A stretch of 64,000 bases of DNA from Candidatus Eiseniibacteriota bacterium (GCA_965224245.1 OZ245046.1:5472001-5536000); one strand, 5' to 3'. Shown: positions 1-53,516, counted from the stretch's first letter. Program-made: numbers and translations. Notes: generated from the sequence alone by a model not told the origin.

Positions 1-1837
1 CCAGCGCCCGGGCGCGTGCCTGGAGCAGGCGGACCTTCCGGCGGGGCTCCCCCGGCATCCCGACCGACACCGCGTGATCGATGACCCGAACCGCGTCGTC
101 GTAGTGGCTCGCGATCAGGAGGCGCTCGGTCCGCTCGATCTGGAGCTCCTTCCAGAGCTCCGGGTGCGACTCCGGTCCGATCAGCTCGCCGGCCCGCTCC
201 AGGTGGGCGTGCGCCTCGTCGAGCGCGGCCAGACTGACGTACGCCGAGCCCAGCGTCACGTGCATGTCGGCGGCCACGTCGGGCTGATCGACGAACTCGG
301 TCTCGATGCGCCGCGCGCTCGACTCCAGCAGCGAGCGCATCAGCGTCGTGTCCTGTCCGCGTGCGACGTCGGGCGAGATCGAGCGGAGCATCTCCTTCAG
401 GAACCGGCTGATCTCCTCGGACTTTCGTCGCTCGAACTCGGATACGCGCCGGTACTCTTGCGCACGCCTCCGGAGCCGCTCGGCGCGAAGGTACAGCGCG
501 GTGACGGCGATCGTCGCGCCCCCGAGGACGGCCACCGAGGTCGCGCCGAGGAACTGGTTCGTGGTCAGCGTGGTCGCGCCCCCGATGGCCAGCACGACGA
601 CCGCGATCGCGCCGGCGAGCGTACGATTGCGACGGATCCACTTGGCGGCCCGGTACACGGGGGTGCTCGGCCGCGCACTCACGGGGCGGTTCTCGAGGAA
701 GCACTCGATGTCCACGGCGAGCGCCCGCGGGGACGAGTAGCGGCGTGCGGGCTCCTTCTCGAGCGCCTTCATCAGGATCCTGTCGAGATCGCCCCGCACG
801 CGCCGCATCAGCGTGCGGGGCTCCATCGATCGGGCGGCGATGTCCCTGGCCGTGCTCGTCTCGATCGCGCGGCTGGGCAGCGTGGGGGCGACGTTCAGGA
901 CCTCCTCGATCCAGCGCACGACGCCGCCCTCGCGCCAGACGTGGGGGAGCTGCCCGGTCACGAGCTGATAGAGAAGCACGCCGAGCGAGTAGACGTCGGT
1001 CGCGGGGGTGATCGCGTGTCCGCGGAGCTGCTCGGGGCTCGCGTAGTGGGGCGTCATCATCGCGGCCGCCGTCGCGGTCCGGTTCGCGCTCCCCTGGAGG
1101 AGCTTGGCGATCCCGAAGTCGAGGAGCTTCACCACGCCGGCGTCGGTGACGAGGATGTTCGACGGCTTCAGGTCCCGGTGCACGACCTGGTGCGCGTGTG
1201 CGTAGTCGACCGCCTCGCAGACGTCGCGGAAGAGCCGCAGGCGAGCCTCCAGGGACAGCCGGGCGGCGTCGCAGTGCCGATCGATGGCGTCGCCGTCGAC
1301 GTACTCCATGACGATGTACGGCATGCCGTCGGGGGTCTCGCCGCCGTCGAGGAGGCGCGCGATGTGGGGGTGCTCCAGCGTGGCCAGCACCTGACGCTCG
1401 GCGCGGAGTCGACCCGCCAGCGACGTGTCGTCCCGCTCGTGCTGGAGGAGCTTGACCGCGACGCGCTTGTCGAACTGGCGATCGGCGCGCTCGGCACCGT
1501 AGACGACGCTCGTGCCGCCGGTCCCGATGCGGCGCGTCAGGCGATAGGCGCCGAGCATGCGGCCGACCCAGGGGTCGTCCGCCGGGGCGCCCGTGCCCGC
1601 GGGCGGCACCGCCGCGACGGCGGGCTCGTCCAGAGCCGGGGAGCGCGGGATCACGGGTTCGTCCAGGAACGTGCCCGCGTCGTCGTGCGCGGCCAGGAGC
1701 GACTCGAGATCGCGGCACAGCTCGGGCGCCCTCGCGCGCAGCTCGTCGAGCCACCCGCGCCGCGCACCCGGCGCGAGGCTCATGGCGTGCGCGAATGCCG
1801 AGAGGAGCTCGGCCGGGGGGTCGGGGGATGGCGTCAT
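1..1837 (-). CDS. Ser/Thr protein kinase with TM segments and TPR-like C-terminus (3' end runs off the window)
   Basis: Manual minus-strand translation from ATG 1837 (absent from the ORF track because it has no stop in the window): MTPSPDPPAELL...GAYRLTRRIGTGGTSVVY...VAVK...HRDLKPSN...DFGIAK...TPHYASPEQ...GDLDRILMKALEKEPARRY. The frame is open to position 1. Confidence 0.92.
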   Translation of the reverse strand, partial: MTPSPDPPAELLSAFAHAMSLAPGARRGWLDELRARAPELCRDLESLLAAHDDAGTFLDEPVIPRSPALDEPAVAAVPPAGTGAPADDPWVGRMLGAYRLTRRIGTGGTSVVYGAERADRQFDKRVAVKLLQHERDDTSLAGRLRAERQVLATLEHPHIARLLDGGETPDGMPYIVMEYVDGDAIDRHCDAARLSLEARLRLFRDVCEAVDYAHAHQVVHRDLKPSNILVTDAGVVKLLDFGIAKLLQGSANRTATAAAMMTPHYASPEQLRGHAITPATDVYSLGVLLYQLVTGQLPHVWREGGVVRWIEEVLNVAPTLPSRAIETSTARDIAARSMEPRTLMRRVRGDLDRILMKALEKEPARRYSSPRALAVDIECFLENRPVSARPSTPVYRAAKWIRRNRTLAGAIAVVVLAIGGATTLTTNQFLGATSVAVLGGATIAVTALYLRAERLRRRAQEYRRVSEFERRKSEEISRFLKEMLRSISPDVARGQDTTLMRSLLESSARRIETEFVDQPDVAADMHVTLGSAYVSLAALDEAHAHLERAGELIGPESHPELWKELQIERTERLLIASHYDDAVRVIDHAVSVGMPGEPRRKVRLLQARARAL

Positions 1838-1990
1838 GGGCTCTCGTGGGTGAGGTCGACGTCCGGTGAGGATAGAGGGGGAGGCGCGATCGTGTCCACC
1901 GACCGCGCGGCGGCACCCCGGTGCCTCCGTTCCGAACCGCGTGACCGGTACCCCCTGATCCGGCTCGTGTGAGGACACCGCCGTCCCGGC

Positions 1991-3616
1991 CTACCGGCCG
2001 CGGAGATCCAGATAGGACCGGTGGGCCGAATCCACGGAGCTCCCCTCCAGAAGGCTCTTCACCCGATCGGCGAGCAGGCCGCGCACCGCGTACAGATGGT
2101 GGTAGCGCTCGCCGTAGCGCACCAGAAACAGGCGATACCGGCCCGGCGCCGCCACCAGCGCGCGATACACGGCGATCGGCGCGCGCTGGACCGGACTCAG
2201 GCCGTCCAGCGAGAGTCGCGCGAAGTCCGGACGGATCAGCCGTCTCAGGTGCTCGAGGTCGATCTCGTGCACCGGCGCACCGACGCCGACGAGCGGCGTG
2301 AGCGTGTCGGCGGTGTGCACGAGGACGATGTCCGGTCCGAACGCGTCGAGCAGATGCTCGTCCGCGCCGTGGCCCGCCACCTCGGCCGAGTTCAGGCCCA
2401 CGAGATCCAGCGTTCGACATCGCATCCAGAACGGGAGCCGTCCCGCCTCGCTGACCGCGAGAGAAACGTCCGGTCCGAGAGCACGCCGTAGCTCGAACGG
2501 AAACGTGTTGATGTACTGGGGTGTGGTGAGAACCCGGAGCTCCCGGGCGAGCGCCATCGCGTGGCCGAGGCTGACGGTGGTGGCCACCAGCAGGATCGAC
2601 ACGAGCCGACTCGTCGGTGCCGACCCGCGTCGCGCACCGGCCACGAACGCGCCGAACACGAGGAGCAGAAAGGCCGTGGCCGGTCCTTGCAATCGGAACG
2701 CCACGTTCTGCGACGGCGTCGTCACGCCGAGCACGCCGACGAGGAGCGCGAACGGGATCGCAGCTCGTTCCCACCGGCGTCGCGCTTCGGGATCGGCGAG
2801 AACCCAGGCGAGTGCGGCCACGCACACGAGAGCAGCCTGCCCGGCGGCCCAGCTCAGGTTCGAGCGGATCCCGTCCCAGGCCGATCCGTGCAGTCCCTTC
2901 ACGATCAACGGCAACGGCAAGAGCTCGCCGAAGTACGTCGTGCGCCAGATCATGTAGACCACCGCCACGGCTCCACACGCCGCGGTCGCGATCGCGTACC
3001 GTCTCGCGTCGCCGGCTCGACGTGCCGTCAGCAGCCCGAGCACCACGACCGCACCGCCGACGACGACCCCGTCGGGTCGGAAGAGCGCGACCACCAGTGC
3101 GAGCGCCGGGACGAGCACGACCGAGCGTCGGGTCCACCCGAGTAGACGGTCGACGAGAACGAGACACAGGCCACCATAGGCGAGCGTGCTGAATCCGCCG
3201 TAGCTGGCCGCGGCCAGGGGAGAGAGGGCGATCATCGGCGGGAGAATCCACGCGATCGGATCCCGAGCGCGACCGGCGCCGGTGTAGCGGGCGAGGACGA
3301 TCGCACAGGCGTACGCACCGGCGGCGTTCAGCATCGCCGCCGCGATCGCGACGTCGACCCCCAGGGAGACGAGCGCCGTCAGCAGCACCAGCCACAGGAA
3401 GTCGGTCGCTCCCTCGGTGTGCGGTCCCCCGGGATGAAACACGATCCCGTGGCCGTGGGCGGCGTTCTCGGCGTACGTGAACAGGATGTACGCGTCCTCG
3501 TGCGGGTGACCGTCCGAGAGGACGGCGTACCCGATCGCGAACACCATGATCACCGTCACCAGCGCGACGAGGTGGTGGATCGGTGACGGCGTCGGGGTCG
3601 CTCTCCCGGAGGTCAC
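1991..3616 (-). CDS. Polytopic membrane glycosyltransferase, GT-C fold (AftB-like)
   Basis: N-terminal 'HEDAYILFTYAENAAHGHGIVFHPGGPHTEGATDFLW', 'RPDG' motif, many TM helices, C-terminal 'EAGRLPF...LDLVGLNS'. Confidence 0.75.
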   Translation of the reverse strand: MTSGRATPTPSPIHHLVALVTVIMVFAIGYAVLSDGHPHEDAYILFTYAENAAHGHGIVFHPGGPHTEGATDFLWLVLLTALVSLGVDVAIAAAMLNAAGAYACAIVLARYTGAGRARDPIAWILPPMIALSPLAAASYGGFSTLAYGGLCLVLVDRLLGWTRRSVVLVPALALVVALFRPDGVVVGGAVVVLGLLTARRAGDARRYAIATAACGAVAVVYMIWRTTYFGELLPLPLIVKGLHGSAWDGIRSNLSWAAGQAALVCVAALAWVLADPEARRRWERAAIPFALLVGVLGVTTPSQNVAFRLQGPATAFLLLVFGAFVAGARRGSAPTSRLVSILLVATTVSLGHAMALARELRVLTTPQYINTFPFELRRALGPDVSLAVSEAGRLPFWMRCRTLDLVGLNSAEVAGHGADEHLLDAFGPDIVLVHTADTLTPLVGVGAPVHEIDLEHLRRLIRPDFARLSLDGLSPVQRAPIAVYRALVAAPGRYRLFLVRYGERYHHLYAVRGLLADRVKSLLEGSSVDSAHRSYLDLRGR

Positions 3617-5100
3617 CGGTTCGACCTCTCGGGCGGGAGCGCGAGCTCGGTGACGAGCTCGTGCGTTCGTGGGCTCCGGAACGCCGAGCGCGCATCCTCC
3701 TCGAGCGTGAGCTCGGCCACGGTGCGCGACGCGAAGTTCGCGTTCAGGAGACGGCTCGTCAGCGCCTCGGGATCGCGCGCCAGGCTCTCACGGAGCACGA
3801 CGACCCGACGTCCCGACACGAGGGCCTCTCCGATCGCCCGTGCGATGCGGACCGCCTCCTCGCGCGGGGCCGCGACCGCCGGGTCGTGCCGGGGCACGAT
3901 CAGCTCGCGTCGCGTGTAGTAGGCGACGAAGGGTGCCATGCGATCGGCCAGCACGGCGGTCGTCGCCGGCGTCTCGGCGTCGATCCAGCTCGCCAGCGTC
4001 CTGGGGCCGGAGACCCGCGACCGGAGCTGCATCGCTGGCCATGCATCGACGAGCGGGACGATGATCAGACCCAGGACGCCGATCGCGACCGCGGCCGGCC
4101 GGGCGCGCGCCAGCGCGCCGCCGCCCAGCACGTCGGTGAGCCCGCGCGCCACCAGGAGCGAGAGCACGGCGGCGGGCAGCGCGAGCGAGCGCGGAAAGAG
4201 CTCCCCGGCGAGGAACGCGTGCACGAGCGCGACGCCGGTCCACGCGGCGAGGATCCGGAGCATCCGGCCGCCGTGAGCGACCGCGATCGCCGCGAGACCG
4301 AGCCCGATCGGAAGCACCGCGCGGGCGAGATCCCCGGCCCCCGGAGCGAGGTCGTGGAGCGAGGGAAGGCCGGTCGATCCGAACATCGCGCTCGGGCTCG
4401 CTCCCGGCCCGAGCCGTCCACCGAGCATGGCCACGACGGCGGCGACGAACGCGATGGCGAACGCACCGAACGGCCGGGGCGCGGCGGGCTCCCGGACGAG
4501 GAGGACGAGACCCACCGTCGCCGACGCGAGCCACGTCGTGGGGAGCGTCAGCATCGCGCCGGCGGCCAGCGCGGCGGCCAGGAGCCCATGGCGGAGGTGG
4601 ACGTCGGGGGCCATCACCATGCCCAACGCACCGAGCACCAGCGCGATCGCGAGCGAGTGTCCCGACGCGGCGGTGGCCTCGGCGACCAGCAGCGGATTGG
4701 CCCCCACCAGGAGCGCCACCCCCGAAGCGATCGGATGCCCGGCTCCCAGCACCCGCGCCAGCCGGTACGCTGCCAGCACGGCCAGCGAGCCGAACAGCGC
4801 CCCGCTGGCGATGAGCGCTCGCTCGAGGTCCATGCCGAGCGCGCTCGTCAGGCTCGCCACCGCACGGCTCGCGGCCACGAGGAGCGGGCCCGGGTGCGAC
4901 GATGCACCGGCGATCCAGCCGATCGGATCGCCACCGCTGCTCGAGACCACGCGCGAGGCGAGCGCCACCTCGTCGGGGTGCACGAAGCCCGCGTGACCCG
5001 CGGCCAGGTACCCGAGGAGGGTCCCCAGTGTGATCGCGATCGGGACGGCGACGTCGCTGGCGACACGCCGCCCGGGAGTCTCGCTCGCGCCCGTCGCCAA
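3613..5100 (-). CDS. Polytopic membrane protein, probable GT-C (PMT/ArnT-like) glycosyltransferase
   Basis: 'HPDE' acidic motif after TM1, about 11 hydrophobic helices, soluble C-terminal domain; 4-bp overlap with the downstream GT-C gene. Confidence 0.6.
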   Translation of the reverse strand: MATGASETPGRRVASDVAVPIAITLGTLLGYLAAGHAGFVHPDEVALASRVVSSSGGDPIGWIAGASSHPGPLLVAASRAVASLTSALGMDLERALIASGALFGSLAVLAAYRLARVLGAGHPIASGVALLVGANPLLVAEATAASGHSLAIALVLGALGMVMAPDVHLRHGLLAAALAAGAMLTLPTTWLASATVGLVLLVREPAAPRPFGAFAIAFVAAVVAMLGGRLGPGASPSAMFGSTGLPSLHDLAPGAGDLARAVLPIGLGLAAIAVAHGGRMLRILAAWTGVALVHAFLAGELFPRSLALPAAVLSLLVARGLTDVLGGGALARARPAAVAIGVLGLIIVPLVDAWPAMQLRSRVSGPRTLASWIDAETPATTAVLADRMAPFVAYYTRRELIVPRHDPAVAAPREEAVRIARAIGEALVSGRRVVVLRESLARDPEALTSRLLNANFASRTVAELTLEEDARSAFRSPRTHELVTELALPPERSNR

Positions 5101-5422
5101 TCGTCACCTCCGACCCGTGCGTTGCCACCGCGCCGGGCGATGGAAGACCTCGTTCGTGCTGCGCCGCCGACGCAACCGGGAGCACCCGCCGGTCGCAAGG
5201 GGCGTTCCCCGCCCGGTGCGAGCGCTCATACCGAGGATGCCGTCTCCGGTTGGTGATGTCTATAAGTATCTTCATTGCAACACATTGCGGCATTCGCTAC
5301 GGCGACCTACGACAACCGGCGGCCATCCGTGTTCGGTCGGGCGGCCCCGTGCGTCTGACTCCACGACGACGAGATCGAGCGGGCCAGCGGCGAGTTTCGC
5401 CGCCCCGGCATGCCAACGTAAG

Positions 5423-6076
5423 ATGTCAGGAGGTTCACCCATCGCATCCCTAGCCCGGGTCGCGCTCTTGACCGACGACACACGAGATCCCGGCGTCCCG
5501 CCGGTCGAGCGTACGGTTCCGGTTCTGGAATCGTCGCTCCAGCTGATCACGCGTGCCCGTCAGGGCGACTCCGTGGCCGTGGATCGACTCTGCGCGCGCT
5601 ACCTGCCCCGGCTTCGCCGCTGGGCGACCGGGCGGATGCCCAGGAAGTCGCGCGGGCTCCTCGACACCGACGATCTCGTCCAGAACACGCTCCTGCGCAC
5701 CGTCCGTCGCCTCGGGGACTTCGAGACCAGTCACCCGGGTGCGTTCCAGGTCTACGTGCGGCAGGTGCTGATCAATCAGATTCGCGATCTCGGTCGACGC
5801 GGCGCGCGCCGGCCCGACGAGGACGAGCTGATCGAGGAGATCGACGATCCGGGGCCGTCTCCGCTGGAGGCCGCCATCGGATCGGACATGGTCGAGCGCT
5901 ACGAGGCCGCCCTCGCGCGACTCGAGCCCGCCGCGCGAGAAGCCATCGTCGCTCGCGTGGAGATGGGCTGGTCGTACGCGCAGGTGGCCGAGGTACTGGG
6001 GAAACCGTCGGCCGACGCGGCTCGCATGACCGTTGCGCGTGCGCTGTCGCGGCTGGCCGAGGAAATGGACGTGTGA
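5423..6076 (+). CDS. ECF RNA polymerase sigma factor (module 1)
   Basis: Region 2 'LITRARQGD...RYLPRLRRWA...DTDDLVQ' and region 4 'REAIVARVEMGWSYAQVAEVLG...ARMTVARAL'. Start uncertain (ATG 5423 or TTG 5468); the ORF-track 5030 start is over-extended. Confidence 0.9.
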   Translation: MSGGSPIASLARVALLTDDTRDPGVPPVERTVPVLESSLQLITRARQGDSVAVDRLCARYLPRLRRWATGRMPRKSRGLLDTDDLVQNTLLRTVRRLGDFETSHPGAFQVYVRQVLINQIRDLGRRGARRPDEDELIEEIDDPGPSPLEAAIGSDMVERYEAALARLEPAAREAIVARVEMGWSYAQVAEVLGKPSADAARMTVARALSRLAEEMDV

Positions 6077-6079
6077 ACC

Positions 6080-7870
6080 ATGCGTGACGAGGGCTTCCTG
6101 GACGTCGCCGCGACCATCTCCGATGGTGCCGGGATCGAGTGGTCGGTCATCGAGGGACGGGCGCGCTCCGACGACGAGCGCCGGCACCTGCGCCGGCTGC
6201 GTCTGGTCGACGACATCGTCACGTTTCATCGCGTGTGGCAGAGCCAGGTGGACGAGCTCGGCGATCCGATCGACGCGACCTCGCCGGACGCGCCGAGCTA
6301 CGACGCGACGTGGGGCCCGCTGGGTCTCCTGGAGCGGATCGGGCAGGGATCGTTCGGCGTCGTGTATCGCGCGTGGGATCCCAAGCTCGAGCGTGAGGTC
6401 GCGCTGAAGCTCTCGCCCGCCGGCGCCGATCCGGCGCGTGCGGCGACGATCTCCCGCGAGGGACGCCGGCTGGCCCGCGTCGATCACCCCAACGTGGTCA
6501 CGGTGTACGGCGCCGCCGACGACGACGGCCGCGCCGGGATCTGGATGGAGCTGATCGACGGGATCACGCTTCAGGACCAGGTCAAGCGCGACGGACCGAT
6601 GAGCGAGCGCGAGGTGATCGCGATCGGTCAGGACCTGTGCGGCGGGCTCGCCGCGATCCACGGCGCCCGGCTCCTGCATCGCGACATCAAGGCGGCGAAC
6701 GTCATGCGCGAGCGCGGCGGGCGCATCGTGCTGATGGATCTCGGATGCGGCCTGGACACGCCCACCGGGGTGGCGCCGGCCGCCCGTGACGCGCGGAGCA
6801 CGTCGTCGATCTCGGGCACGCCGATGTACATGGCGCCCGAGCTGTTCGACGGCGCCGAGGCGAGCTTCCGGAGCGACGTCTACGGACTCGGCATGCTCCT
6901 GTACTTCCTCGCCACCGGAACGTACCCGGTCGAGGCGATCACGCTGGGTCAGCTCACCGACGCGCTGAAGCGCGGAGAGCAGCGCCGGCTGCGCGACGTG
7001 CGCCCCGATCTGTCGTACACGTTCGTGCAGGTGATCGAGCGCGCGATCGCGCTGGATCCCGCCGGTCGGTACGCGTCGGCCGGCGAGCTGGACGACGCGC
7101 TGGGTCGCGTGCTCTCGTCCGATCTCGATCGATCGGGACGCGCCGCGACGCTCGAGACACCGGCACCCACCGGGTCTCCCGCGCCCACCGATCGTCCTGC
7201 GCGCCGTGGACGGATCGCGACCCTCGCGCTCGCGGCGGCGGTCGTGGCCGCCATCGTGCTCTGGCGATGGGCACCCTGGGCGTCCGGCTACGTCGTCGAC
7301 GCCACGTTCTATCGTCAGCTCCCGTCGGGTGCGGTCGAGGCGCTCGCGATGAACGATCGCGTGCAGCCGAAGGAGCAGTTCCTGATGCGCGCCGAGCTGT
7401 CCGACGAGACATGGGTCTACGTGATCAACCAGGACGATCACGGCGAGTCGTACCTGCTCTTCCCCATGCCGGGGCTCGAGCAGACGAACCCGCTTCCGGC
7501 CGGACGGCACGAGCTGCCCGGCGTGTGGCTCGGCGAATCGATCCGGTGGCAGTTCTCCTCCGCGGGAGGTCGCGAGCGGCTGCTCCTGGTGACCTCGCCG
7601 GAGCCGCTCACCGACTTCGAAGGCGCGCTGGCGGCACTGCCTGCGCCGCGCGCCGACGGCGAGCTCCGCGCCGCGCAGCTCTCGCCCGAGAGCGTGCGCC
7701 GGCTGCGCGGGGCGGGTGCCATCGCGCGCCATGCGCCCGGGGCGGCGAGCGCGCCGCCGGAGATCCTCGAGATGGCCGAGCCGCTGACCGGGCGCGAGCG
7801 CTCGTCGGGGCTGCGGGTCCGCGAGATCGTGCTGGAGAACCCGGTAGATCCGCAGGGAGACGGCCGGTAG
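6080..7870 (+). CDS. Membrane Ser/Thr kinase with C-terminal extracytoplasmic DUF4384-like domain
   Basis: GQGSFG, VALK, HRDIKAAN, DLG and APE motifs; TM 'IATLALAAAVVAAIVLW'; tail 'DRVQPKEQF...WVYVINQDDHGESYLLFP...GRERLLLVTS'; starts 3 bp after the sigma stop. Confidence 0.9.
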   Translation: MRDEGFLDVAATISDGAGIEWSVIEGRARSDDERRHLRRLRLVDDIVTFHRVWQSQVDELGDPIDATSPDAPSYDATWGPLGLLERIGQGSFGVVYRAWDPKLEREVALKLSPAGADPARAATISREGRRLARVDHPNVVTVYGAADDDGRAGIWMELIDGITLQDQVKRDGPMSEREVIAIGQDLCGGLAAIHGARLLHRDIKAANVMRERGGRIVLMDLGCGLDTPTGVAPAARDARSTSSISGTPMYMAPELFDGAEASFRSDVYGLGMLLYFLATGTYPVEAITLGQLTDALKRGEQRRLRDVRPDLSYTFVQVIERAIALDPAGRYASAGELDDALGRVLSSDLDRSGRAATLETPAPTGSPAPTDRPARRGRIATLALAAAVVAAIVLWRWAPWASGYVVDATFYRQLPSGAVEALAMNDRVQPKEQFLMRAELSDETWVYVINQDDHGESYLLFPMPGLEQTNPLPAGRHELPGVWLGESIRWQFSSAGGRERLLLVTSPEPLTDFEGALAALPAPRADGELRAAQLSPESVRRLRGAGAIARHAPGAASAPPEILEMAEPLTGRERSSGLRVREIVLENPVDPQGDGR

Positions 7871-7898
7871 GCCGCTCGCCGGATCGTGTCGGACGGGC

Positions 7899-7907
7899 AT
7901 GGTAGAA
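7899..7907 (+). promoter_or_regulatory. Possible extended -10 sigma70 promoter (TGGTAGAAT)
   Basis: TGn-TAGAAT about 40 bp upstream of ATG 7948. Confidence 0.3.
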
Positions 7908-7947
7908 TCGACCATCCCGCGCAACGACGAAAGGCACGGAACAATTC

Positions 7948-9582
7948 ATGACATCTGGCTTCGCACCTTCATCGGCGATCTGGCGCCCGCGACATCGGCA
8001 ACCCGCGTGGTGGTTCTCGGCCATCGGCGGCGCTCTCGCGCTCGCGTGTCTCGGCGCCACGCCGGTCATCGCCGGGCTCGGCGACACCGGCTCGGCCGGT
8101 ACGCTGCCCGACGACGGGGAGGGCGCCGGCGCGGAGGGGGCCGACCGGGATCCCGACGACACGACGACCGGCGTCTGCGGAACCGTGAACAGAAGCGGCG
8201 GCGAGCCCGGCGCCTGGATCTGGATCGTACCCGACGACGAAGTGGTCCAGACCTCCGAGCTGAAGGGCTCCGAGAAGGAGGATTGCTCCGAGGCGTGCGA
8301 CGTGGCGTTCGGTCGATCGTGCGCATCCTCGCGACTGGGGAGCCCCGTGAACGGGAGCGATCCCGGTGGACGGCGCGGTGCGGACGAGCCCGGCGCCGGC
8401 ATTCTCGAGACGTACCTCCTCGTCGTCGGGTCGTACCAGGACCCGGGCGTTCAGCCCCAGCCCGTCGTGTGGGAGAGCCCGACGTCGGCGCCGCCGTTCA
8501 CCGCGAAGACGCTGGACACGCTCGCCGGCGGCGAAGGCCAGGCGCACGCCGTCGTCAAGGCGGACGACGTCTGGTGGATCGGCGGCGACACGAAGGGACC
8601 GGCGGGCTGTGTCCGCCCCTGCGTGTGGACACGTCAGTGCGAGGACGGGCCCTGGATCCTGACCGTGCTGCCGGTCCCGGCCGGAAGCTGCGAGGCCTCG
8701 GTGCGCGACGTCTTCGACTTCGGACCGGCCGGCGTCGGCGCCGTGGGCTACGCCGACGACGCCAAGGGCGTCAGGATCCCGTTCCTCTGGCGCTACGCCG
8801 CCGGCGCGTGGACCCCCGATCCGCTTCCGGTGCCGGGTGATCTGCCCGGGCGGGCCATCGCGGGATTCTGGCGATCGGGACGAGCTCAGATCGTGGGACA
8901 CGTCGACTGCACGCTGCCGAGCTCGTGCGGGGGGCTCCTCTGGGACTGGACACCCGGCGGAGGGGCCACCGTGACGCCGCTGGATCCGACGCTGGGTCCG
9001 ATCTACCGGCCGACCGACATCCTGCCCTACGGACCGACCTGCGGCGTGATCATCACGGGCACGGTCCTGACCGGCACGGGCATGCTCGCCGAGCGCATTC
9101 CGGTTCTCCAGTACGCGCGGTGCGCCCCCGGCGGCGTCCTCGACCCGGTCGACCTGAACGCGCTCCTCTCGGAGCCGTACGACGGCGTCCTCCGCACGGC
9201 CGACGCGATCACGGCCGGCGGGCACGTGTACGTGACCGGTGACGCCACCACGACCGGCGGGCCGAGCTTCGGCAACGCGTATCTGTGGACGTCCGACGCG
9301 CTACTCGACGCCCCGGACGTCGTGGCGGTGGCGCCACTCATCGCGGCGACTCCCAACCCGGTGCGCCGGAGTGTCCGGCTCACGCTGCCCGAGGGAGCGG
9401 CCGGCGCCGACGTCCGCGTCTTCGACGCCGGCGGGCGCGTCGTGCGCGAGCTCGCCGGAGGCCGCGTCCGCGCCTGGGATCGGACCGATAGCGCTGGCCG
9501 TCGCGTACCCGATGGGGTCTACTTCGTCAGAGCGACCTGGCCGTCCGGCGTCTCGACGGCCAAGCTCGTCGTCGACGACTAG
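7948..9582 (+). CDS. Secreted Cys-containing protein with propeller-like repeats and FlgD-Ig/T9SS-like C-terminal domain
   Basis: Signal-like N-terminus; repeats 'TLDTLAGGEGQAHAV', 'VLPVPAGSCEASVRDV', 'PLPVPGDLPGRAIA'; C-terminus 'PNP...VRVFDAGGRVVR...WDRTDSAGRRVPDGVYFVR'. Confidence 0.75.
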   Translation: MTSGFAPSSAIWRPRHRQPAWWFSAIGGALALACLGATPVIAGLGDTGSAGTLPDDGEGAGAEGADRDPDDTTTGVCGTVNRSGGEPGAWIWIVPDDEVVQTSELKGSEKEDCSEACDVAFGRSCASSRLGSPVNGSDPGGRRGADEPGAGILETYLLVVGSYQDPGVQPQPVVWESPTSAPPFTAKTLDTLAGGEGQAHAVVKADDVWWIGGDTKGPAGCVRPCVWTRQCEDGPWILTVLPVPAGSCEASVRDVFDFGPAGVGAVGYADDAKGVRIPFLWRYAAGAWTPDPLPVPGDLPGRAIAGFWRSGRAQIVGHVDCTLPSSCGGLLWDWTPGGGATVTPLDPTLGPIYRPTDILPYGPTCGVIITGTVLTGTGMLAERIPVLQYARCAPGGVLDPVDLNALLSEPYDGVLRTADAITAGGHVYVTGDATTTGGPSFGNAYLWTSDALLDAPDVVAVAPLIAATPNPVRRSVRLTLPEGAAGADVRVFDAGGRVVRELAGGRVRAWDRTDSAGRRVPDGVYFVRATWPSGVSTAKLVVDD

Positions 9583-9668
9583 GACCCGCCGAGCACGCCC
9601 GACGTCTCACGGGGTCCGCGCGATTCAGGGGGTGGCGTTCGCCGCTCCCGCACCCCCGGGAGCGCTCG

Positions 9669-12600
9669 GTGCCGCGCGACAGAGCCCACTCCGATCGATT
9701 CCCCAGCTTCGACGGCGCGTGCGGGTCATGCGCCGCCTTCGGCGCGGGGCTCCTGGCCCTGGCCACGACCCTCGCCGGGTCGGCGTCGGCCGAGTGCACG
9801 CTGAGCGCGTCCGACGCGGCCCGCGTCACGCAGCTCGAGGATGCGGTCGAGCGCCACGTCACCACGGCACGCTTCGACTCCGCCAGCGTGGCGGCGGAGG
9901 AGATCGAGACGCTGTGGTCGCGGGCCGACGTCGCGGGCATGCCGTGCGGTCCCGCGATCGAGTGGCGCTGGGAGCACGACGCCTACCGGACCGTGGCCGG
10001 GCTGGACGCACCGGACCGCGAGCGGTTCGCCCGCTCGTCCGGGGAGCTGCGACACGCCATCGCGCTCCAGCGCGGGAGTCACACCGACAGCGCCGTCGTC
10101 ATCTTCGAGAGCATCGCGTCGCTCTACTCCCGCACGCTCGGTCCCGGCCATCCGTGGACGGCGCAGGTCGACGGGCGGCTCGCGCTGGCGCTTCACGCCG
10201 ATCGGCGTCCCGACGAGGCGCTGCCCATCGCGTACCGGTACCTCGACGGGCTGGTGTCCGCGTACGGAGAAGAGCACGTGGAGGTCGCGAAGGCGGAGTA
10301 CAACGTCGCCCGCATCGAGCGGGCGCTCGGACACTTTCCCGACGCCGAGGCACTCCTACGGTCGTCGCTGGCCCGGCGCGAGCGACTCTTCGGGGCCGAC
10401 GGCGCCGGTGTCGTGGTGGCGCTGACCGCGCTGGCCGACGTGTTGAAGGAGCTCGGCCGATACGCCGAGGCGGCGCCCCTGGCCCGGCGATCGGTGGCGA
10501 TCCGTCGAGCCGAGTACGGCGACGACCACCCGCGGGTCGCCACCGGGCTCAACGGGCTCGGAACGATCCTGGAGGCGCTCGGCGAGTATCGAGAGGCCGA
10601 GCGCGCGTATCGCGAGGCGCTGGCCATTCGCGAGGCGTCGCTGGCCGCGGAGGATCCCGGCATTGCCTACGTGCTCCGGAATCTCGCGATCACGCTTCAG
10701 CGACAGGGACGGTTCACCGAGGCGGCGGCGCTGCTGGCCCGCTCGATCTCGATCGCGGAGGCGGCCTGGGGACGGGACGACGATCGCGTGGCCCGGCACG
10801 TGCGATCGCTCGCGCTGGTGTACGCGGCGCTCGGCGACCACGAGCGGGCCGAGGCGCTCGATCGTGAGGTGATCGCCACGCTGCGCCGGGCCCTCGGCGA
10901 CGAGCATCCCGAGGTGGCCAAGACGCTCCTGAACCTCGTCGACGCGCTCGTGCCCCAGAGACGACATGCCGAGGCGATGACCGTGCTGGACGAGGCGATC
11001 GAGATCGGACGCCGCCCGAACGCCTCGCGCGTCCATCTCGCGACGAGCCTGATGATGAAGGGTGTGCTCCTCCGGCGCGACCATCGTCTCGACGAAGCCG
11101 AGGTCGCGGTCGAGGAGGCGCTCGGCATCCTGCGCGAGCAGGTGGACGCCGACCATCCGCTGGTGGCGCAGACTCTGGAGTCGCTAGGGGGGCTGGCCCG
11201 CGCTCGCGGTGACTACCGGACCGCGTTGACGTTTCTGACGCAGGCCACCGAGGCGAGGCGCGCGCGGCTCGGTCCCGAGCACCAGCGCGTGGCATCGGGG
11301 CTTCTCGCATCCGCGCTGTGTCATCTCGGGCTCGGCGAGGGCGACGCGGCATACCGGGACGCGGCCGAGGCCGAGGAGGTGGCCCGCGATCATCTCGCGC
11401 TGATGAGCTCGGCGACGTCGGAGGCTCTCGCGCTCGCGTACGCCGACACACGCACGTCGGGGCTGGATCTCATGACGACGCTGGCGGTGGAGCCGGTGAC
11501 CGAGCACGGCGATCCTCCGACCCCGTCGGCCGACATCGCCCGTCAGGCCCGCGTATCCGCGACGTGGGATGCGATCGTCCGCTCGCGAGGACTCGTCGTG
11601 GACGCGATGGCGGCCCGACAGCGGCGCGCGTTCGAGACCGCGTCGGACCGGGTCCGTTCGCTCGTCTCCGAGCTGGCCGATGCGCGCGAGCAGCTGGCCA
11701 ACCTGGCCTTCACGAACGTCGACGAGGTGGAGGAGGATGTGTACCGGCGCTCGCTGGCCGCGGCTCGCTCGCGCCGGCGCGAGGCCGAGGAGGCGCTGAC
11801 GCGCGAGATGGGCGCGGTGCCGGGCGCGGTGGCCGACGTGGGTCTCGCGGACGTCCGCGCGGGGCTCCCGGCCGACGGCGCGCTGGTGGCGTACTGGCGC
11901 TACGAGCGGGCCGATGCGCGGCCGGATGCACCACGTGAGCCGAGGATCGGCGCGTTCGTTCTCGCGGGACCCGATCGCGCCCCGCGCGCGATCGACCTCG
12001 GTCCCGAGCGCGCGATCGACGACGCGGTCCGGGCCTGGCGCGCGACGCTCGTGGACGCCGCCACGCGATCCGACCTCGCCGGCGCCGAGGACGACCACCG
12101 CCGTGCATCGCGACGGCTGGCCGAGCGGATCTGGGATCCGATCCGGCGCGACGTCGCGGACGCCGGACACGTCTTCGTCGTGCCGGACGGCGCCGTGCTG
12201 GTCGTGAACCTCGCGGCGCTGGTCGGTCCCGACGGACGGTACCTCGTCGAGAGCGAGACGCCGCTGACGACGCTGGGCGTCGAGCGGGACCTCGTCGACG
12301 CCCCGGGCGAGAGCGCCGGGGGGCTTCTCCTCGTCGGGGATCCCGACTACGGAGAGGCGCTGGTCACGGTCTCGCCCGGCGGGTCGGCGACGCCCGCCGA
12401 CCGGACGGACGCGCCGGGCTTCGCGCCGCTCCCGGGGACCCGGGTCGAGGTGGAGACGATCGCAGGGCTGTGGGACGCCCCCGAGGATCTGGTCGTGCTG
12501 ACCGGCGCCGACGCCACCGAGGCCGCCTTCAAGCGCGCGGCACCGCGGTTCGGCCTGCTCCACGTGGCGACGCACGGGTTCTTTCTCGATGCCGGGACCA

Positions 12601-13109
12601 CCCGTCGCGAGGGGCTCCGCGGCGCCGGCGAGATCGCCGTCGCGTCCTCGTCGAGCCGCCCTCGGCGCGCGCCACGGAGCCCGCTCCTCCGGTCGGGGCT
12701 CGTCCTGGCCGGCGCGAACGCACGCGGAGAGCGGGACGGCGACGCCGACGACGGCATCCTGACCGCCGAGGAGATCGCCGGGCTCGATCTGGCCCGGGTC
12801 GGGTGCGTGGTGCTGTCGGCGTGCGACACCGGGCTGGGAGAGGTGCGGGCCGGCGAGGGGGTCTTCGGCCTGCGGCGGGCGTTTCGCATCGCCGGCGCGC
12901 ACGGGGTGGTCATGAGCCTGTGGCCGGTGGACGACACGGCGACAGAGGCGTGGATGCGCGCCTGGTATCGCGCCCGGCTCGACGACCGGGTGGGCATGAC
13001 GGAGGCGGTACGGGTCGCGTCACGGTCGGTGATCCGCGATCGCCGCGCGCGGGGGGAGAGCACGCACCCGTTTCTGTGGGGTGCGTTCGTCGGCGTCGGG
13101 CGCGAGTGA
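9669..13109 (+). CDS. TPR-CHAT (caspase-like, clan CD) protease with signal-peptide-like N-terminus
   Basis: Kinesin-light-chain-type TPRs ('GDDHPRVATGLNGLG', 'GDEHPEVAKTLLNL'); catalytic His 'HVATHGF' and Cys 'VLSACDTGLG'; 'SLWPVDD'; 'HPFLWGAFV'; hydrophobic 'FGAGLLALATTLAGSASA'. Confidence 0.93.
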   Translation: MPRDRAHSDRFPSFDGACGSCAAFGAGLLALATTLAGSASAECTLSASDAARVTQLEDAVERHVTTARFDSASVAAEEIETLWSRADVAGMPCGPAIEWRWEHDAYRTVAGLDAPDRERFARSSGELRHAIALQRGSHTDSAVVIFESIASLYSRTLGPGHPWTAQVDGRLALALHADRRPDEALPIAYRYLDGLVSAYGEEHVEVAKAEYNVARIERALGHFPDAEALLRSSLARRERLFGADGAGVVVALTALADVLKELGRYAEAAPLARRSVAIRRAEYGDDHPRVATGLNGLGTILEALGEYREAERAYREALAIREASLAAEDPGIAYVLRNLAITLQRQGRFTEAAALLARSISIAEAAWGRDDDRVARHVRSLALVYAALGDHERAEALDREVIATLRRALGDEHPEVAKTLLNLVDALVPQRRHAEAMTVLDEAIEIGRRPNASRVHLATSLMMKGVLLRRDHRLDEAEVAVEEALGILREQVDADHPLVAQTLESLGGLARARGDYRTALTFLTQATEARRARLGPEHQRVASGLLASALCHLGLGEGDAAYRDAAEAEEVARDHLALMSSATSEALALAYADTRTSGLDLMTTLAVEPVTEHGDPPTPSADIARQARVSATWDAIVRSRGLVVDAMAARQRRAFETASDRVRSLVSELADAREQLANLAFTNVDEVEEDVYRRSLAAARSRRREAEEALTREMGAVPGAVADVGLADVRAGLPADGALVAYWRYERADARPDAPREPRIGAFVLAGPDRAPRAIDLGPERAIDDAVRAWRATLVDAATRSDLAGAEDDHRRASRRLAERIWDPIRRDVADAGHVFVVPDGAVLVVNLAALVGPDGRYLVESETPLTTLGVERDLVDAPGESAGGLLLVGDPDYGEALVTVSPGGSATPADRTDAPGFAPLPGTRVEVETIAGLWDAPEDLVVLTGADATEAAFKRAAPRFGLLHVATHGFFLDAGTTRREGLRGAGEIAVASSSSRPRRAPRSPLLRSGLVLAGANARGERDGDADDGILTAEEIAGLDLARVGCVVLSACDTGLGEVRAGEGVFGLRRAFRIAGAHGVVMSLWPVDDTATEAWMRAWYRARLDDRVGMTEAVRVASRSVIRDRRARGESTHPFLWGAFVGVGRE

Positions 13110-13226
13110 GTCGACGGAGTCCGCCGCGCGAGGCGCCGGCGGGCTCAGCGCACGACGGCCGTCGCCGGTGGCCGCAACACGTCCCACGGGTCCGGGCGCG
13201 TGCGGATGGAGATCGCGCCATCGCGA

Positions 13227-14903
13227 TCAACGTCGGCGCGGTGCGAACGCGTAGCCGATCGACAGCTCCACCCATCGCTCACCGTGCGGCGCGGTGCCGG
13301 CGTGATGAAAGTGGTACGTGCCCGCGACCTCGATCGCCGCGTCGCCGCGTGTCGGCAGGCGAACGCCGGCGCCGGCGTAGAAGCCGGCCTGCGTCGATTC
13401 GCGCGCGATGAGGTCGCCCTCCAGCGCGACGCGATGGCCGGCGCCCCCGGCCCGCACGAACGCCTCGTTCCCGCTCGATGGGAGATCGACGTCGGCGCGA
13501 AGGCCGGCCGAGAACTGCGTCAGGGTGTAGTGCGGGTCGCGATCCTCCTCGGGCTCGGTGTCGACCAGAGCGGAGTAGCGCCCGCTCAGCGCCGCGCGCA
13601 TCAGCGATGTCTCCGCGGAGGCCGGTGAGCCGTCGATCGGGAACCGGGAGCCGACGCGGATGCCGTTGCCGTGGGAGATCCCCACCGACAGGCCGCGAAG
13701 CGGCGTCACCCGCGCGTACGCGACCGAGAACGACGGTGTCGACAGATGACGGGGTCGGGGCCGATCGCCGGAGGCGACGATCTCCAGCCCGAACTTGTTG
13801 ACCGACGACTCGAGGGCGCGTGCTTGTGGGACGCGCGCGTAGTCGAAGCGGAGATCGACCGCGAGAGGCAGGGGCACGACGATCCCCATGCCGTAGGTAT
13901 GATCGAGGATGTCCCCGTCCCGGTCGTGTACGTATCCGAATCGGCCGAACACGATTCCCTCCGCCGACACCTCGTTGCCCCAGTTGCGAATGAAACGCTC
14001 GCGATAGCTGCCGTCCTCGGCCAGGATGATCTGCGGCTGATTGCTGTCGAAGGCGGCCGTCCACGCGAGCGGGCCGGCAACGATCTCCACGGCGACGCCG
14101 TCGCGGCGGATCCGGCCCAGCGGCGAGGCCTGTCCCTCGTCGATGAAGGTGATGCTCTCCTTGCCGTTTCCGAGGAACGTCCGGTTCGTCCAGGCCATGC
14201 CGGCCGACACGCGGAGTGCAGGGGAGGTGAGCGCGGGCGGGCCACCCAGTGGACGCCACACCGGCGTGCGCACGATGAGTCCGTAATCCCACACCCAGGC
14301 GTCGCCCTTGCCCGCTTCGCCGTCCGGTGTGGCCCAGGCCGGCGCGAGATCGACCGTGACCTCCTTGACCGTGACCCCGACCGAGAGCACGTCGCCCGGA
14401 ACGTACGGGATCGACTCGCGCACGGACCGGGGCGCGAGCTCGAGCGGCGTGAGCGCCAGTGTTGCGCCCAGCGCTCGCTCGTACGACTCGAACTCGCCGA
14501 GCTCCTCTTCCTCGTCGCTGATCGCGGTCGAGAGGCCGTAGCTGAGATCGGTCGTCTGGAGCGAGATCGCGACGCCCCGGAGCGGCACGGTCGCGGCCCA
14601 GAATCCGAACGTGACGTCGTGCGCGAGACCGGGAACCAGCACGGTCAGAGGTTCGGTTCCGAACAGGCGCGGCGATCGCACGTTCGTCACCGCGGCGGGG
14701 TTCCACCAGGCGGCGGTGCCGTCCGACGCGATGGCCGATCCGGCCCGTCCCATCCCGTCGTATCGACCACCGGGGGTGATGAGGAGCGACTGGGCGCCCG
14801 CGGTGCTCTGTGCGTACGCGTCGCGGCTGATCATCGACAGCGAGCAAGTGATCAGACCGGTCACCGCGAGCCGGTGCCAACGCGCCGTCGGGAGTCGTGT
14901 CAC
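13227..14903 (-). CDS. PorV/PorQ-family outer-membrane beta-barrel with an extra C-terminal OMP-like barrel
   Basis: Signal peptide then 'AQSLLITPGGRYDGMGRAGSAIASDGTAAWWNPAAV', the typical PorV/FadL-like N-terminus; GTG 14903 preceded by AAGGAGG. Confidence 0.75.
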   Translation of the reverse strand: MTRLPTARWHRLAVTGLITCSLSMISRDAYAQSTAGAQSLLITPGGRYDGMGRAGSAIASDGTAAWWNPAAVTNVRSPRLFGTEPLTVLVPGLAHDVTFGFWAATVPLRGVAISLQTTDLSYGLSTAISDEEEELGEFESYERALGATLALTPLELAPRSVRESIPYVPGDVLSVGVTVKEVTVDLAPAWATPDGEAGKGDAWVWDYGLIVRTPVWRPLGGPPALTSPALRVSAGMAWTNRTFLGNGKESITFIDEGQASPLGRIRRDGVAVEIVAGPLAWTAAFDSNQPQIILAEDGSYRERFIRNWGNEVSAEGIVFGRFGYVHDRDGDILDHTYGMGIVVPLPLAVDLRFDYARVPQARALESSVNKFGLEIVASGDRPRPRHLSTPSFSVAYARVTPLRGLSVGISHGNGIRVGSRFPIDGSPASAETSLMRAALSGRYSALVDTEPEEDRDPHYTLTQFSAGLRADVDLPSSGNEAFVRAGGAGHRVALEGDLIARESTQAGFYAGAGVRLPTRGDAAIEVAGTYHFHHAGTAPHGERWVELSIGYAFAPRRR

Positions 14904-48773: not shown

Positions 48774-48870
48774 CGAGGACCTCCATGTGACGAGCCGGGT
48801 GGTCGAGCCTGCGGGGCTTTCCTCGTGGTCGCGCGTCGAGCCCGGGTGTGACCGCCGGAGCGGTGGGAGG

Positions 48871-51801: not shown

Positions 51802-52124
51802 GCGTGGCGCTTCTCCGGGCTGGCGGCCAACCTGAGATCGGCATCCGGCGGGCGCCGGCGCCGGACCCGTACCCATCCATGGTACTGCATCTCCCGCGGC
51901 GAGACGTCGATCGGGACCCGCGCGCGGTCACACCGGGCCACGCGGAGCGACCTCGGAACGTGGCGCCGGCGTGCCGGTCCGGCGCGGTCGCGCACGAGGA
52001 GACCCTTGGAGGTGTCGTGTCGGCGACGATGGCGGTCGCGAGTAGCGGTCCCCGCGATTATGCTCTGAGGGTTGGGCGGCCGGTTGCCGCGCGTACCGAA
52101 CCTCCGACGAACGAGCGACGGACG

Positions 52125-52688
52125 ATGCACGACGCGACCCGAGCGGACAGCACCGGAATCGACTGGGGAGAGATCCGCGCGCTGGCGCGGCGCCGTCTGG
52201 AGGTCCTGATCGACGCGCGCGACCGCGACGACCTCGACGATCTCGTGCAGGAGATCTGCATCCGGTATCTCCGGGTGGCCCGTCGCGAGGGCATCGATGA
52301 TCCCGACGGGCTGGTCATGACGCTGGCCCGACGCACACACGTCGATCACATCCGTCGCGGCCTGCGCATTCGCCGCCGATCCGAGGCGCTCGAGCGCGAG
52401 TACGACGCGGCACCCGTGCCGTCGGCCGCCGGCGTCCCCGATCCGCTGGGAAGCCTCATCGATCGCCTCCCGCTGATCGTGCAGGAGGTGTTCCGCGAGC
52501 ACGGACGCGACGAGTGCGTCGAGCTCCTGAACCTCTTCTGCTCCGGACGACCCTGGAGCCAGGGGGCGGCCGAGCGGGGCGTGGCGCCACCCACACTGCG
52601 GAAGCGATGGTCTCGCTGCCTCGACATCGCGCGCTCGGCGCTGTCCGCCGACCCGTTGCTGGCCGAGCACGTCCGGAGCGGAGGCTGA
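52125..52688 (+). CDS. ECF sigma factor (module 2)
   Basis: 'DDLDDLVQEICIRYL', 'ARRTHVDHIRR', region-4-like 'WSQGAAERGVAPPTLRKRWSRCL'. Confidence 0.75.
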   Translation: MHDATRADSTGIDWGEIRALARRRLEVLIDARDRDDLDDLVQEICIRYLRVARREGIDDPDGLVMTLARRTHVDHIRRGLRIRRRSEALEREYDAAPVPSAAGVPDPLGSLIDRLPLIVQEVFREHGRDECVELLNLFCSGRPWSQGAAERGVAPPTLRKRWSRCLDIARSALSADPLLAEHVRSGG

Positions 52689-52691
52689 CCC

Positions 52692-53516
52692 ATGGACGAG
52701 CATGCGGTGACGGAACGCCTCCTCGTGGCCTATCGCCTCGGGCTGCTCGACGATGCGTCGCGTGAGGCCGTGTGTGACCACCTGGCCACGTGCGACGCCT
52801 GCTCCGAGCTCGAGACCGAGATCGCCACACGCCTGGGCGAGGACGCCACCGTCGACCGGCACGTGAGCCCGACGATGCTGGTCGGCTGGCCGATGGCGGT
52901 GATCTCGCTGACCGGCCTCGAGCGGCGTGCCGTGTCGGCGCACCTACGGCGGTGTGCCGACTGCCGGGACGATCTCCGGCGTCTGGGATACGATCCCGTG
53001 CTGTCGGACGCGTCCGCCCTCGAGGTGGCGGCCACCTCACGCGAGCCGGGATGGCTCGCGCGCGCGGTGAACGCGGTCGCGGCGTTGCCGCTGTCTCCGC
53101 TTCCGGTCAACCCGTCGCGCGGTGCGGCCGGTGACGAGGCCGAGGCGGCGATGTGGCGGGGACTCGACCGGTACCGATCGGGCGACTACGCGGCGGCCGT
53201 GCGCGAGCTCGCCGCCGCGGGAGACGCCGCGCACGACCGGCCGGAGGTGCGACTCTACGAGGGGTCGGCGCGGCTCCTGTGCGGTGATCTCGCCGGGGCG
53301 CGCTCGGCGCTCACGGCCGGGGCGTCCGGGGCGCTCGAGGGATCGCGCGTCGAGCGAGAGATCGGCTGGCTTCTCGCGATGGTGCAGATCGCGTCCGGCC
53401 GGTTCGAGGCGGCCGCGGACCAGCTGCGATCGTTGACCGGGTCCGGGGACCGGGCCCAGGAGGCGCGCGAGACGCTGGACGCGCTCGTCGGGCTGAGGCT
53501 GGTGTCCGAGGCATGA
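52692..53516 (+). CDS. Anti-sigma factor with two zf-HC2 motifs and C-terminal TPR
   Basis: 'HLATCDAC' and 'HLRRCADC'; TPR-like 'GLDRYRSGDYAAAVREL...RLYEGSARLLCGD'; 3 bp after the sigma stop; no clear TM helix. Confidence 0.8.
   Translation: MDEHAVTERLLVAYRLGLLDDASREAVCDHLATCDACSELETEIATRLGEDATVDRHVSPTMLVGWPMAVISLTGLERRAVSAHLRRCADCRDDLRRLGYDPVLSDASALEVAATSREPGWLARAVNAVAALPLSPLPVNPSRGAAGDEAEAAMWRGLDRYRSGDYAAAVRELAAAGDAAHDRPEVRLYEGSARLLCGDLAGARSALTAGASGALEGSRVEREIGWLLAMVQIASGRFEAAADQLRSLTGSGDRAQEARETLDALVGLRLVSEA

Follow-up and report, generated by a model that had tools for sequence, protein, structure and literature searches.

A loop motif shared by a predicted exported TPR-CHAT protease and a DUF4384 receptor kinase encoded with an ECF sigma factor

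The stretch analysed here (the window) comprises 64,000 nt of Candidatus Eiseniibacteriota bacterium (GCA_965224245.1 OZ245046.1:5472001-5536000; positions are counted from its first letter). Between 5423 and 13109 it encodes a sigma factor of the extracytoplasmic function (ECF) type, a receptor Ser/Thr kinase with a DUF4384 outer domain and a tetratricopeptide repeat (TPR)-CHAT protease that is predicted to be exported (Table 1). A short motif in a loop of the kinase outer domain is mirrored just after the catalytic His of the protease, and the variants of the motif match within modules. We propose, with a probability of about 0.5, that the exported protease recognizes in the kinase a replica of its own processing site, which it probably cuts after Arg, and that this gates phosphorylation of the sigma factor.

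The mirrored loop motif

Alignment of the kinases placed the motif L-R-G-[IV]-G-G-[LV] in the tail that follows the DUF4384 core, and alignment of the CHAT proteins showed it again, within an insert that directly follows the catalytic His. The window proteins carry the variants RLRGAGAIA (kinase) and GLRGAGEIA (protease). Modules elsewhere have variants of their own that match between the two partners: RSIGGL in locus L001, GIGG[ML]APAP in L009, RGIGGAV in L019 and RLRGVGGV in L029. R543 and G544 were invariant in 41 kinases, one per 50%-identity cluster, and L542 and G546 were almost invariant. In an alignment of 20 CHATs, the Arg of the protease loop was nearly invariant.

The match was scored in 17 kinase/CHAT pairs by an unbiased search for the highest-scoring ungapped 9-mer between the final 115 residues of the kinase and the 60 residues past the HxATHG of the CHAT (L012, L013 and L023, whose CHAT open reading frames (ORFs) have no HxATHG, were left out). 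The best 9-mer was the R-[GS]-x-G-G motif in 14 of the 17 pairs. Cognate pairs gave a mean of 31.3. Shuffled pairings averaged 26.2 (standard deviation (SD) 0.95), with 0 of 20,000 shuffles scoring as high as the cognate set; shuffled kinase tails scored 21.3 (SD 3.3). The motif was also present in both partners of all 11 distinct pairs in a replication set of metagenome loci found via their CHAT gene, from which L155 was left out because the locus ends before the motif. For the orphan kinase of L004, the top matches were L006 (score 40) and L005 (37), the two orphan CHATs of the same genome, neither of which has a kinase gene next to it. The L004 kinase carries VGGLTPSAG and the L006 CHAT (G000:C1:5816500-5824000) carries VSGLTPSAG; on the strength of their sequences, the two are predicted to be a pair acting in trans.

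The AlphaFold2 model of the kinase outer domain (32-sequence alignment) had a mean predicted local distance difference test (pLDDT) score of 80.4, with a sandwich at ecto residues 7-107 (pLDDT >90). The motif lies in a loop at ecto residues 142-158, after which a final strand (180-187, pLDDT ~93) rejoins the sandwich. The model of the C-terminal 569 aa of the protease had a mean pLDDT of 82.5; the loop after the Cys was of low confidence, as was the post-His insert. Both copies of the motif are in loops of pLDDT <50 beside well-folded cores. A shared and co-varying motif is what one would look for in a protease that cuts or binds the outer domain of its kinase. Complex prediction with the CHAT C-terminal region (569 aa) and the kinase outer domain (197 aa) scored 0.00 twice, with controls unfolded, and was not used for or against binding.

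We infer that Arg is the P1 residue from its conservation and from precedent in clan CD. PmC11 is described as having a His133/Cys179 dyad and as cutting itself at Lys147, which lies in the loop that follows the His strand; this cut relieves self-inhibition and is needed for full activity, and Arg190 of clostripain aligns with Lys147 (PMC4850288). The motif could instead be a docking peptide rather than a cleavage site, in which case the TPR groove or the active-site cleft would hold the protease loop in self-inhibition, the kinase loop would compete with it and the signal would be reversible binding. Short linear peptides are typical ligands of TPR domains, the residues that are conserved and co-vary are mainly those that follow the Arg, and both motif copies are in loops predicted to be flexible. 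However, all members examined have the invariant His/Cys dyad, which argues for catalysis, and the Arg sits at the self-cleavage position of PmC11 and clostripain. We consider docking alone rather unlikely.

The trio and its genomic setting

The order sigma factor, DUF4384 kinase, TPR-CHAT occurs three times in the 6.9 Mb genome, which has 16 CHAT and 6 DUF4384 matches: in the window, in L001 and in L002. Kinase and CHAT genes are directly adjacent in L001 and L002, with no gene between them. A fourth pair of sigma factor and DUF4384 kinase (L004, G000:C1:5272500-5278000) has no CHAT beside it. Five other genomes, of the same class and of other families, contributed seven further pairs. Four of these have a CHAT directly beside them (L008, L009, L010, where it is divergent, and L011); L012 and L013 have CHAT matches of uncertain kind, and the contig of L014 ends 1 kb past the kinase.

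A scan with the kinase alignment, taking one genome per species, returned 80 related kinase loci. DUF4384 outer domains were found in 22 of these, and 11 of the 22 have a CHAT gene, compared with 0 of the 58 loci in which a kinase of this family bears some other outer domain than DUF4384 (Fisher p = 6.7e-8, in a sample in which kin are not independent). The CHAT gene is adjacent downstream in four of the 11 and ~1.9 kb away on the same strand in three (two downstream, one upstream); in the rest it lies upstream or on the opposite strand. The cluster occurs under several phylum-level labels, and the names given for trio-bearing loci include Acidobacteriota, Candidatus Eisenbacteria/Eiseniibacteriota, Polarisedimenticolia and a Dokdonella.

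An initial annotation of the window had described four co-oriented genes, with sigma factor and kinase 3 bp apart. Indeed, all four ORFs are present; they fill 5423-13109, show coding-type codon bias in a region of ~71% G+C, and the kinase starts 3 bases past the sigma stop. The frame of the sigma gene is open from 5030 and its true start is uncertain. Its top NCBIfam match was TIGR02984, at 85 bits and below the cut-off of 183.75. Region 2.2 reads D-T-x-D-L-V-Q in 20 aligned family members, with T82 and D84 invariant and D81 present in at least 90%. The acidic DAED site is thus retained as D81-T82-x-D84, with Thr at the 'A' position. Because both Asp residues are kept, the loss typical of the ECF43 group is absent and we did not file the sigma factor as ECF43. 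The sigma gene of the window lies next to that of a Hanks-type kinase, without an anti-sigma gene. In the related loci, a sigma gene adjoins the kinase gene at a similar rate in both groups, in 18 of the 22 with DUF4384 and in 50 of the 58 others. Other kinase-linked groups that have been listed are ECF59-62, 217, 267 and 283 (PMC7826278).

In the kinase, K110, D202, N207 and D220 were invariant in an alignment of 11 related kinases. So were W21 and L40 of the N-terminal extension, which are nearly invariant in the 41 cluster representatives. A hidden Markov model of the extension also matches sigma-linked kinases that have no DUF4384, and we suggest from its conservation that the extension may dock the sigma factor. 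The single transmembrane helix and DUF4384-like outer domain of the initial annotation were recovered as one hydrophobic span and a DUF4384 (PF14326) match of 25.1 bits by hmmscan, just below the Pfam cut-off of 27, or 29.6 bits in a six-frame search; the paralogous kinases scored 43.5 and 53.7 bits, over the cut-off. A profile search with the outer domain gave 812 sequence clusters at E<=1e-30. All 18 members hand-picked among the top 150 matches carry Pkinase and DUF4384 over cut-off in a Pfam scan. Six of the 18 (P0008, P0019, P0077, P0088, P0093 and P0129) have TPR repeats between the two domains. Foldseek of the outer-domain model against the PDB returned nothing at E<=0.001, only generic immunoglobulin-like sandwiches.

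The dyad of the protease is intact, as had been claimed, with His969 and Cys1052 in invariant motifs. Its N-terminus has by hydropathy the charged, then hydrophobic, then small-residue stretch of a signal-like sequence. A charged-then-hydrophobic N-terminus is found in 19 of 20 CHAT ORFs; the exception, L011, is an ORF called too far upstream, and its trimmed form conforms. The protease had also been said to be extracytoplasmic, and both it and the outer domain of the kinase are predicted outside the cytoplasm from hydropathy and from the topology of the translation. The nearest solved folds to the CHAT model in Foldseek were Csx29 (8eey_B, 2e-12), DdvA (8rot_A, 9e-10) and separase, with gingipain R further down. 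At the sequence level, a profile of the CHAT region had 0 matches in the PDB.

Table 1. Features of the sigma factor, kinase and protease genes and of the gene lying between kinase and protease. Positions are those of the window.
Feature	Position	Strand	Remarks
ECF sigma factor	5423..6076	+	217 aa from ATG 5423; Sigma70_r2, r4_2 and Sigma70_ECF matches
Membrane Ser/Thr kinase	6080..7870	+	596 aa; Pkinase 135 bits
Kinase N-terminal extension, ~75 aa	6080..6304	+	No Pfam family
Kinase catalytic domain, residues 84-332	6329..7075	+	PF00069
Single transmembrane span, residues ~377-397	7208..7270	+	Hydrophobic run after RPARRGR; aligned in all 11 kinases (from translation/alignment)
Predicted extracytoplasmic DUF4384 beta-sandwich and C-terminal tail, residues 400-596	7277..7867	+	AlphaFold2 model
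Kinase loop motif RLRGAGAIA, residues 541-549	7700..7726	+	Arg543-Gly544 is the candidate scissile bond
Exported protein, FlgD_ig / T9SS-type C-terminal sorting domain	7948..9582	+	FlgD_ig 27.9 bits, Por_Secre_tail TIGR04183 26.9 bits (cut-off 23), both over cut-off
TPR-CHAT protease	9669..13109	+	1146 aa; TPR_12 253 bits, CHAT 208.6 bits (PF12770, cut-off 24)
Signal-peptide-like N-terminus, ~43 residues ending AGSASA	9669..9797	+	Hydropathy maximum at residues 21-32
Catalytic His969	12573..12575	+	In HVATHG; invariant in alignments of 12 and of 20 CHATs
Protease loop motif GLRGAGEIA, residues 982-990	12612..12638	+	Arg984 lies 15 residues past His969
Catalytic Cys1052	12822..12824	+	In LSAC; invariant in 12 and 20 aligned CHATs

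The gene at 7948-9582 had been annotated as a secreted cargo belonging to the system. Its product has the makings of a type A cargo of the type IX secretion system (T9SS): the sorting domain is over cut-off, its Atlas neighbours are FlgD_ig/Por_Secre_tail proteins, and a search that covered SprA among the T9SS parts found SprA_N, the translocon component, in the genome (80.7 bits, G000:C1:2013543-2014778, minus strand, in a 2363-aa open frame). This match and the 453 matches to FlgD_ig-like C-terminal domains on the main contig imply, at the level of sequence, a very large T9SS-type secretome. The N-terminal part of the 7948-9582 product has no homologue in the other modules, with which it has only the sorting domain in common. 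CHAT genes lie near FlgD_ig genes in nine of 16 cases, compared with 6.4 (SD 2.0) at random, and 303 of 2000 random draws reach nine. We therefore reject the cargo as a part of the system. The survey of neighbourhoods bears out the module for the sigma factor, kinase and TPR-CHAT genes and not for the cargo; these three genes are the conserved core, and 7948-9582 is probably a bystander. A role for the TPR-CHAT in maturing or trimming T9SS-type proteins such as this one, with the kinase merely regulating, could be argued from the FlgD_ig genes beside several CHATs (in the window, L003, L006 and L010), the FlgD_ig ORF between kinase and CHAT in L029 and the SprA-like gene. However, the adjacency is not above chance, the 7948-9582 product shares only its sorting domain with other modules, and it ranks outside the top three matches to the CHAT loop, so we think such a role very improbable.

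Twelve of the 16 CHAT genes of the genome lie within 10 kb of a Sigma70_r2 match (ten via matches over cut-off, two via sub-threshold matches only), compared with ~2.3 by chance (hand count). Exported TPR-CHATs thus seem to accompany ECF systems regularly in this genome, as a third partner. Most of the sigma-near CHATs belong to subfamilies that have no post-His insert and that adjoin anti-sigma-like genes. The window holds a second TPR-CHAT (48871-51876, minus strand) with an intact dyad and no post-His insert, followed by a FlgD_ig beta-helix protein (46101-48947, minus strand). It is divergent from an ECF sigma factor gene (~52000-52690, plus strand; r2 match ~52173-52358) and a zf-HC2 anti-sigma gene (52692-53516, plus strand); this looks like a DdvA-like arrangement in unfused form. 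In L003 (G000:C1:3943000-3954500), the minus strand encodes a sigma factor (9362-10063), a 302-aa membrane protein (8395-9303), an FG-GAP/FlgD_ig protein (4142-8326) and a TPR-CHAT (651-4046). The 302-aa protein has an anti-sigma-like N-terminus, a DUF4384 outer domain and VRGTGG just past the transmembrane span. By its sequence, L003 is a DUF4384 anti-sigma version of the same arrangement.

A scan of 5000-13400 for promoters and terminators found nothing, and no terminator-like site lies within the cluster. A short A+T-rich stretch at 5258-5300, in the 323-base divergent intergenic region upstream of the sigma gene and in a genome of 71% G+C, is likely to be the promoter area. On the other side of this region is a divergent operon (2-5100, minus strand). 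It encodes two proteins that match no Pfam family (3613-5100 and 1991-3616), together with a TPR-bearing kinase (2-1978) that runs off the window and is 957 aa long in the genome. The genome holds 85 kinase matches.

No cas-like Pfam family was found in the 32 window ORFs scanned, in agreement with the earlier claim that the window has no cas genes. PADLOC on 14 window proteins gave only kinase-domain matches (such as PD-T4-6, mad6 and PglW), which are typical of any Hanks kinase. These results bear on the idea that the module serves, in the manner of DdvA or Craspase, as an alarm against phages or predators, in which the TPR-CHAT would sense an invader molecule and the sigma factor would turn on defence genes. 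The nearest solved folds, Csx29 and DdvA, fit such a role. So do reports that DdvA-DdvS controls an island of a cyclic oligonucleotide-based antiphage signalling system (CBASS) and CRISPR (PMC11506125) and that EcfK/PknS responds to contact with amoebae (PMC13147305). However, no defence family was found past the generic kinase matches in the 14 window proteins scanned, and the 16 CHAT genes and three trios of the genome fit general envelope sensing equally well. The alarm concerns only the input signal and is compatible with the mechanism proposed here; we regard it as quite improbable.

A proposed proteolytic relay

The initial annotation had inferred that an extracytoplasmic TPR sensor-protease cuts or binds the outer domain of the kinase and relays the signal to the sigma factor, an idea that the present results support in part. 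In the mechanism that we propose, the TPR part would sense a signal, upon which the protease would process its own post-His loop. It would then recognize the matching loop of its cognate kinase and most likely cut after Arg543. Through such a cut the sandwich would lose its last strand, and the activity of the kinase would be altered. The kinase in turn would control the sigma factor by phosphorylation; the invariant Thr within the acidic motif of region 2.2 is a candidate site. Cleavage could switch the kinase on or, as feedback, switch it off, and the two are equally plausible. For PknS of Xanthomonas, phosphorylation in cells is reported for truncated forms without the periplasmic domain but not for the full-length protein (PMC13147305). 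It is thus plausible that such a kinase can be switched on when its outer domain is lost.

A fuller version of this mechanism is more tentative. The protease would be a zymogen shut by its post-His loop; a self-cut triggered by the TPR part would be followed by a cut of the identical motif in the DUF4384 domain of the kinase, which would flip a phospho-switch on the sigma factor. The motif variants would serve as addresses against cross-talk between trios, and DUF4384 would be a general receiver for clan-CD proteases, found in some Csx30 proteins, DUF4384 anti-sigma factors and orthocaspases. Csx30 is described as a substrate of the TPR-CHAT protease Csx29 and as a binder of RpoE, and some of its C-terminal domains are DUF4384 (bioRxiv 10.1101/2022.08.17.504292). 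The presence of DUF4384 in some Csx30 proteins hints that the domain may be a general partner of clan-CD proteases. We think that the fuller version is possible, if on the doubtful side.

The simplest alternative is that the sigma factor and kinase are the entire sensor, and that the TPR-CHAT is a co-regulated output, an effector or a housekeeping envelope protease with no action on the kinase. ECF sigma factors commonly drive neighbouring genes, and the motif is also found in CHATs without a kinase neighbour (L005). Several observations weigh against the proteolytic relay, and two of them favour co-regulation directly. Eleven of the 22 DUF4384 kinase loci have no CHAT nearby in the available sequence, at least five of which end at a contig boundary. 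A metagenome scan with the CHAT alignment gave 80 loci of this CHAT subfamily, many of them on short contigs. Only 13 of the 80 carry the back-translated signature of the outer domain, which recovers 24 of 33 known positives and marks none of the 58 loci that have no DUF4384. The link to the CHAT gene is therefore strong from the side of the kinase and partial from that of the protease. In addition, the sigma factor keeps both Asp of the DAED site and may not need phosphorylation in the way that ECF43 does, and export of the protease is read from hydropathy alone. Of the 11 replication pairs, five agree in both residues that follow the Arg, against ~2.5 expected (a hand count), a modest match. 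Overall co-divergence of the kinase outer domain and the CHAT is weak (Mantel r = 0.30, reached by 347 of 10,000 permutations); for the same reason, the match of the motifs is no by-product of close kinship.

Co-regulation leaves two results unexplained. One is that CHAT genes are linked only to kinases that have DUF4384 (11 of 22, compared with 0 of 58). The other is the invariant loop motif of the kinase, which copies the loop of the protease and varies with it. We judge co-regulation unlikely for these reasons. Recognition of the kinase by the protease, most probably with cleavage, remains our preferred reading.

If this reading is true, proteolysis, Ser/Thr phosphorylation and sigma switching are joined in one trans-membrane pathway. 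The outer-domain inputs of kinase-controlled ECF sigma factors are mostly unknown, and bacterial CHAT and caspase-like proteases outside CRISPR systems have almost no known substrates. The module names a concrete candidate substrate and candidate sites, Arg543/Gly544 in the kinase and Arg984/Gly985 in the protease, in a family of at least 812 clusters. It also suggests a function for DUF4384.

Comparison with known systems

The trio is described nowhere in the literature searched (on the topics DdvA, CHAT, DUF4384, ECF43 and TPR-CHAT), although supplementary neighbourhood tables, such as those of PMC7826278, may list it. What is new is the motif in the outer-domain loop of the kinase that is mirrored after the His of the protease, with variants that match within modules.

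PmC11 and clostripain (clan CD, family C11) share with the protease a caspase-like His/Cys dyad followed by a basic residue, ~14 residues past the His in the published account (PMC4850288) and 15 past it, as Arg, here. However, C11 is not CHAT, and these proteases have no TPR part and, in that account, no known partner bearing a copy of the site. Self-processing of the CHAT is only proposed here.

Craspase, of type III-E CRISPR systems (Cas7-11, Csx29, Csx30, Csx31 and RpoE), has the same TPR-CHAT fold (top match 8eey_B, 2e-12). There too, a TPR-CHAT is described as cutting a regulator that binds a sigma factor, and DUF4384 makes up one group of the C-terminal domains of Csx30 (bioRxiv 10.1101/2022.08.17.504292). 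In contrast, no Cas7-11 or other cas gene was found in the scanned window ORFs, and activation cannot be RNA-guided; both partners are predicted to be extracytoplasmic, and the carrier of DUF4384 is a kinase.

DdvS/DdvA of Myxococcus xanthus is described as an ECF sigma factor with a transmembrane zinc anti-sigma factor that has a periplasmic TPR-CHAT, and its authors suggest that signalling begins with a cut by the CHAT in a flexible linker loop (PMC11506125). Both systems couple an extracytoplasmic (here predicted) TPR-CHAT of separase/craspase-type fold (8rot_A, 9e-10) to an ECF sigma factor. However, neither the kinase nor the CHAT of the window has a zf-HC2, and the architecture of zinc anti-sigma, transmembrane span and TPR-CHAT in one polypeptide is thus absent. 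The protease is instead a separate, exported protein, its membrane partner is a kinase and not an anti-sigma factor, and the proposed cut lies in a partner that copies the protease's own loop.

Activation of ECF43 sigma factors by a neighbouring Hanks-type kinase is established for EcfP/PknT of Vibrio parahaemolyticus and EcfK/PknS of Xanthomonas citri (PMC13147305, PMC8999054). As in those pairs, the sigma gene of the window directly precedes that of a one-pass receptor Ser/Thr kinase without an anti-sigma gene; the kinase has an extension ahead of its catalytic domain like that described for PknS, and there is a Thr in the region 2.2 motif of the sigma factor. The sigma factor here keeps D-T-x-D, whereas ECF43 is described as having lost the acidic motif (consensus QTTA; STTA in EcfP). 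The outer domain is DUF4384 rather than TPR, and an exported TPR-CHAT with a mirrored motif has no counterpart in what is described for ECF43. In its working, the module thus resembles an ECF43 pair to which a periplasmic TPR-CHAT like that of DdvA has been added, yet it is a member of neither group, since its sigma factor keeps the acidic motif and its protease is not fused to an anti-sigma factor.

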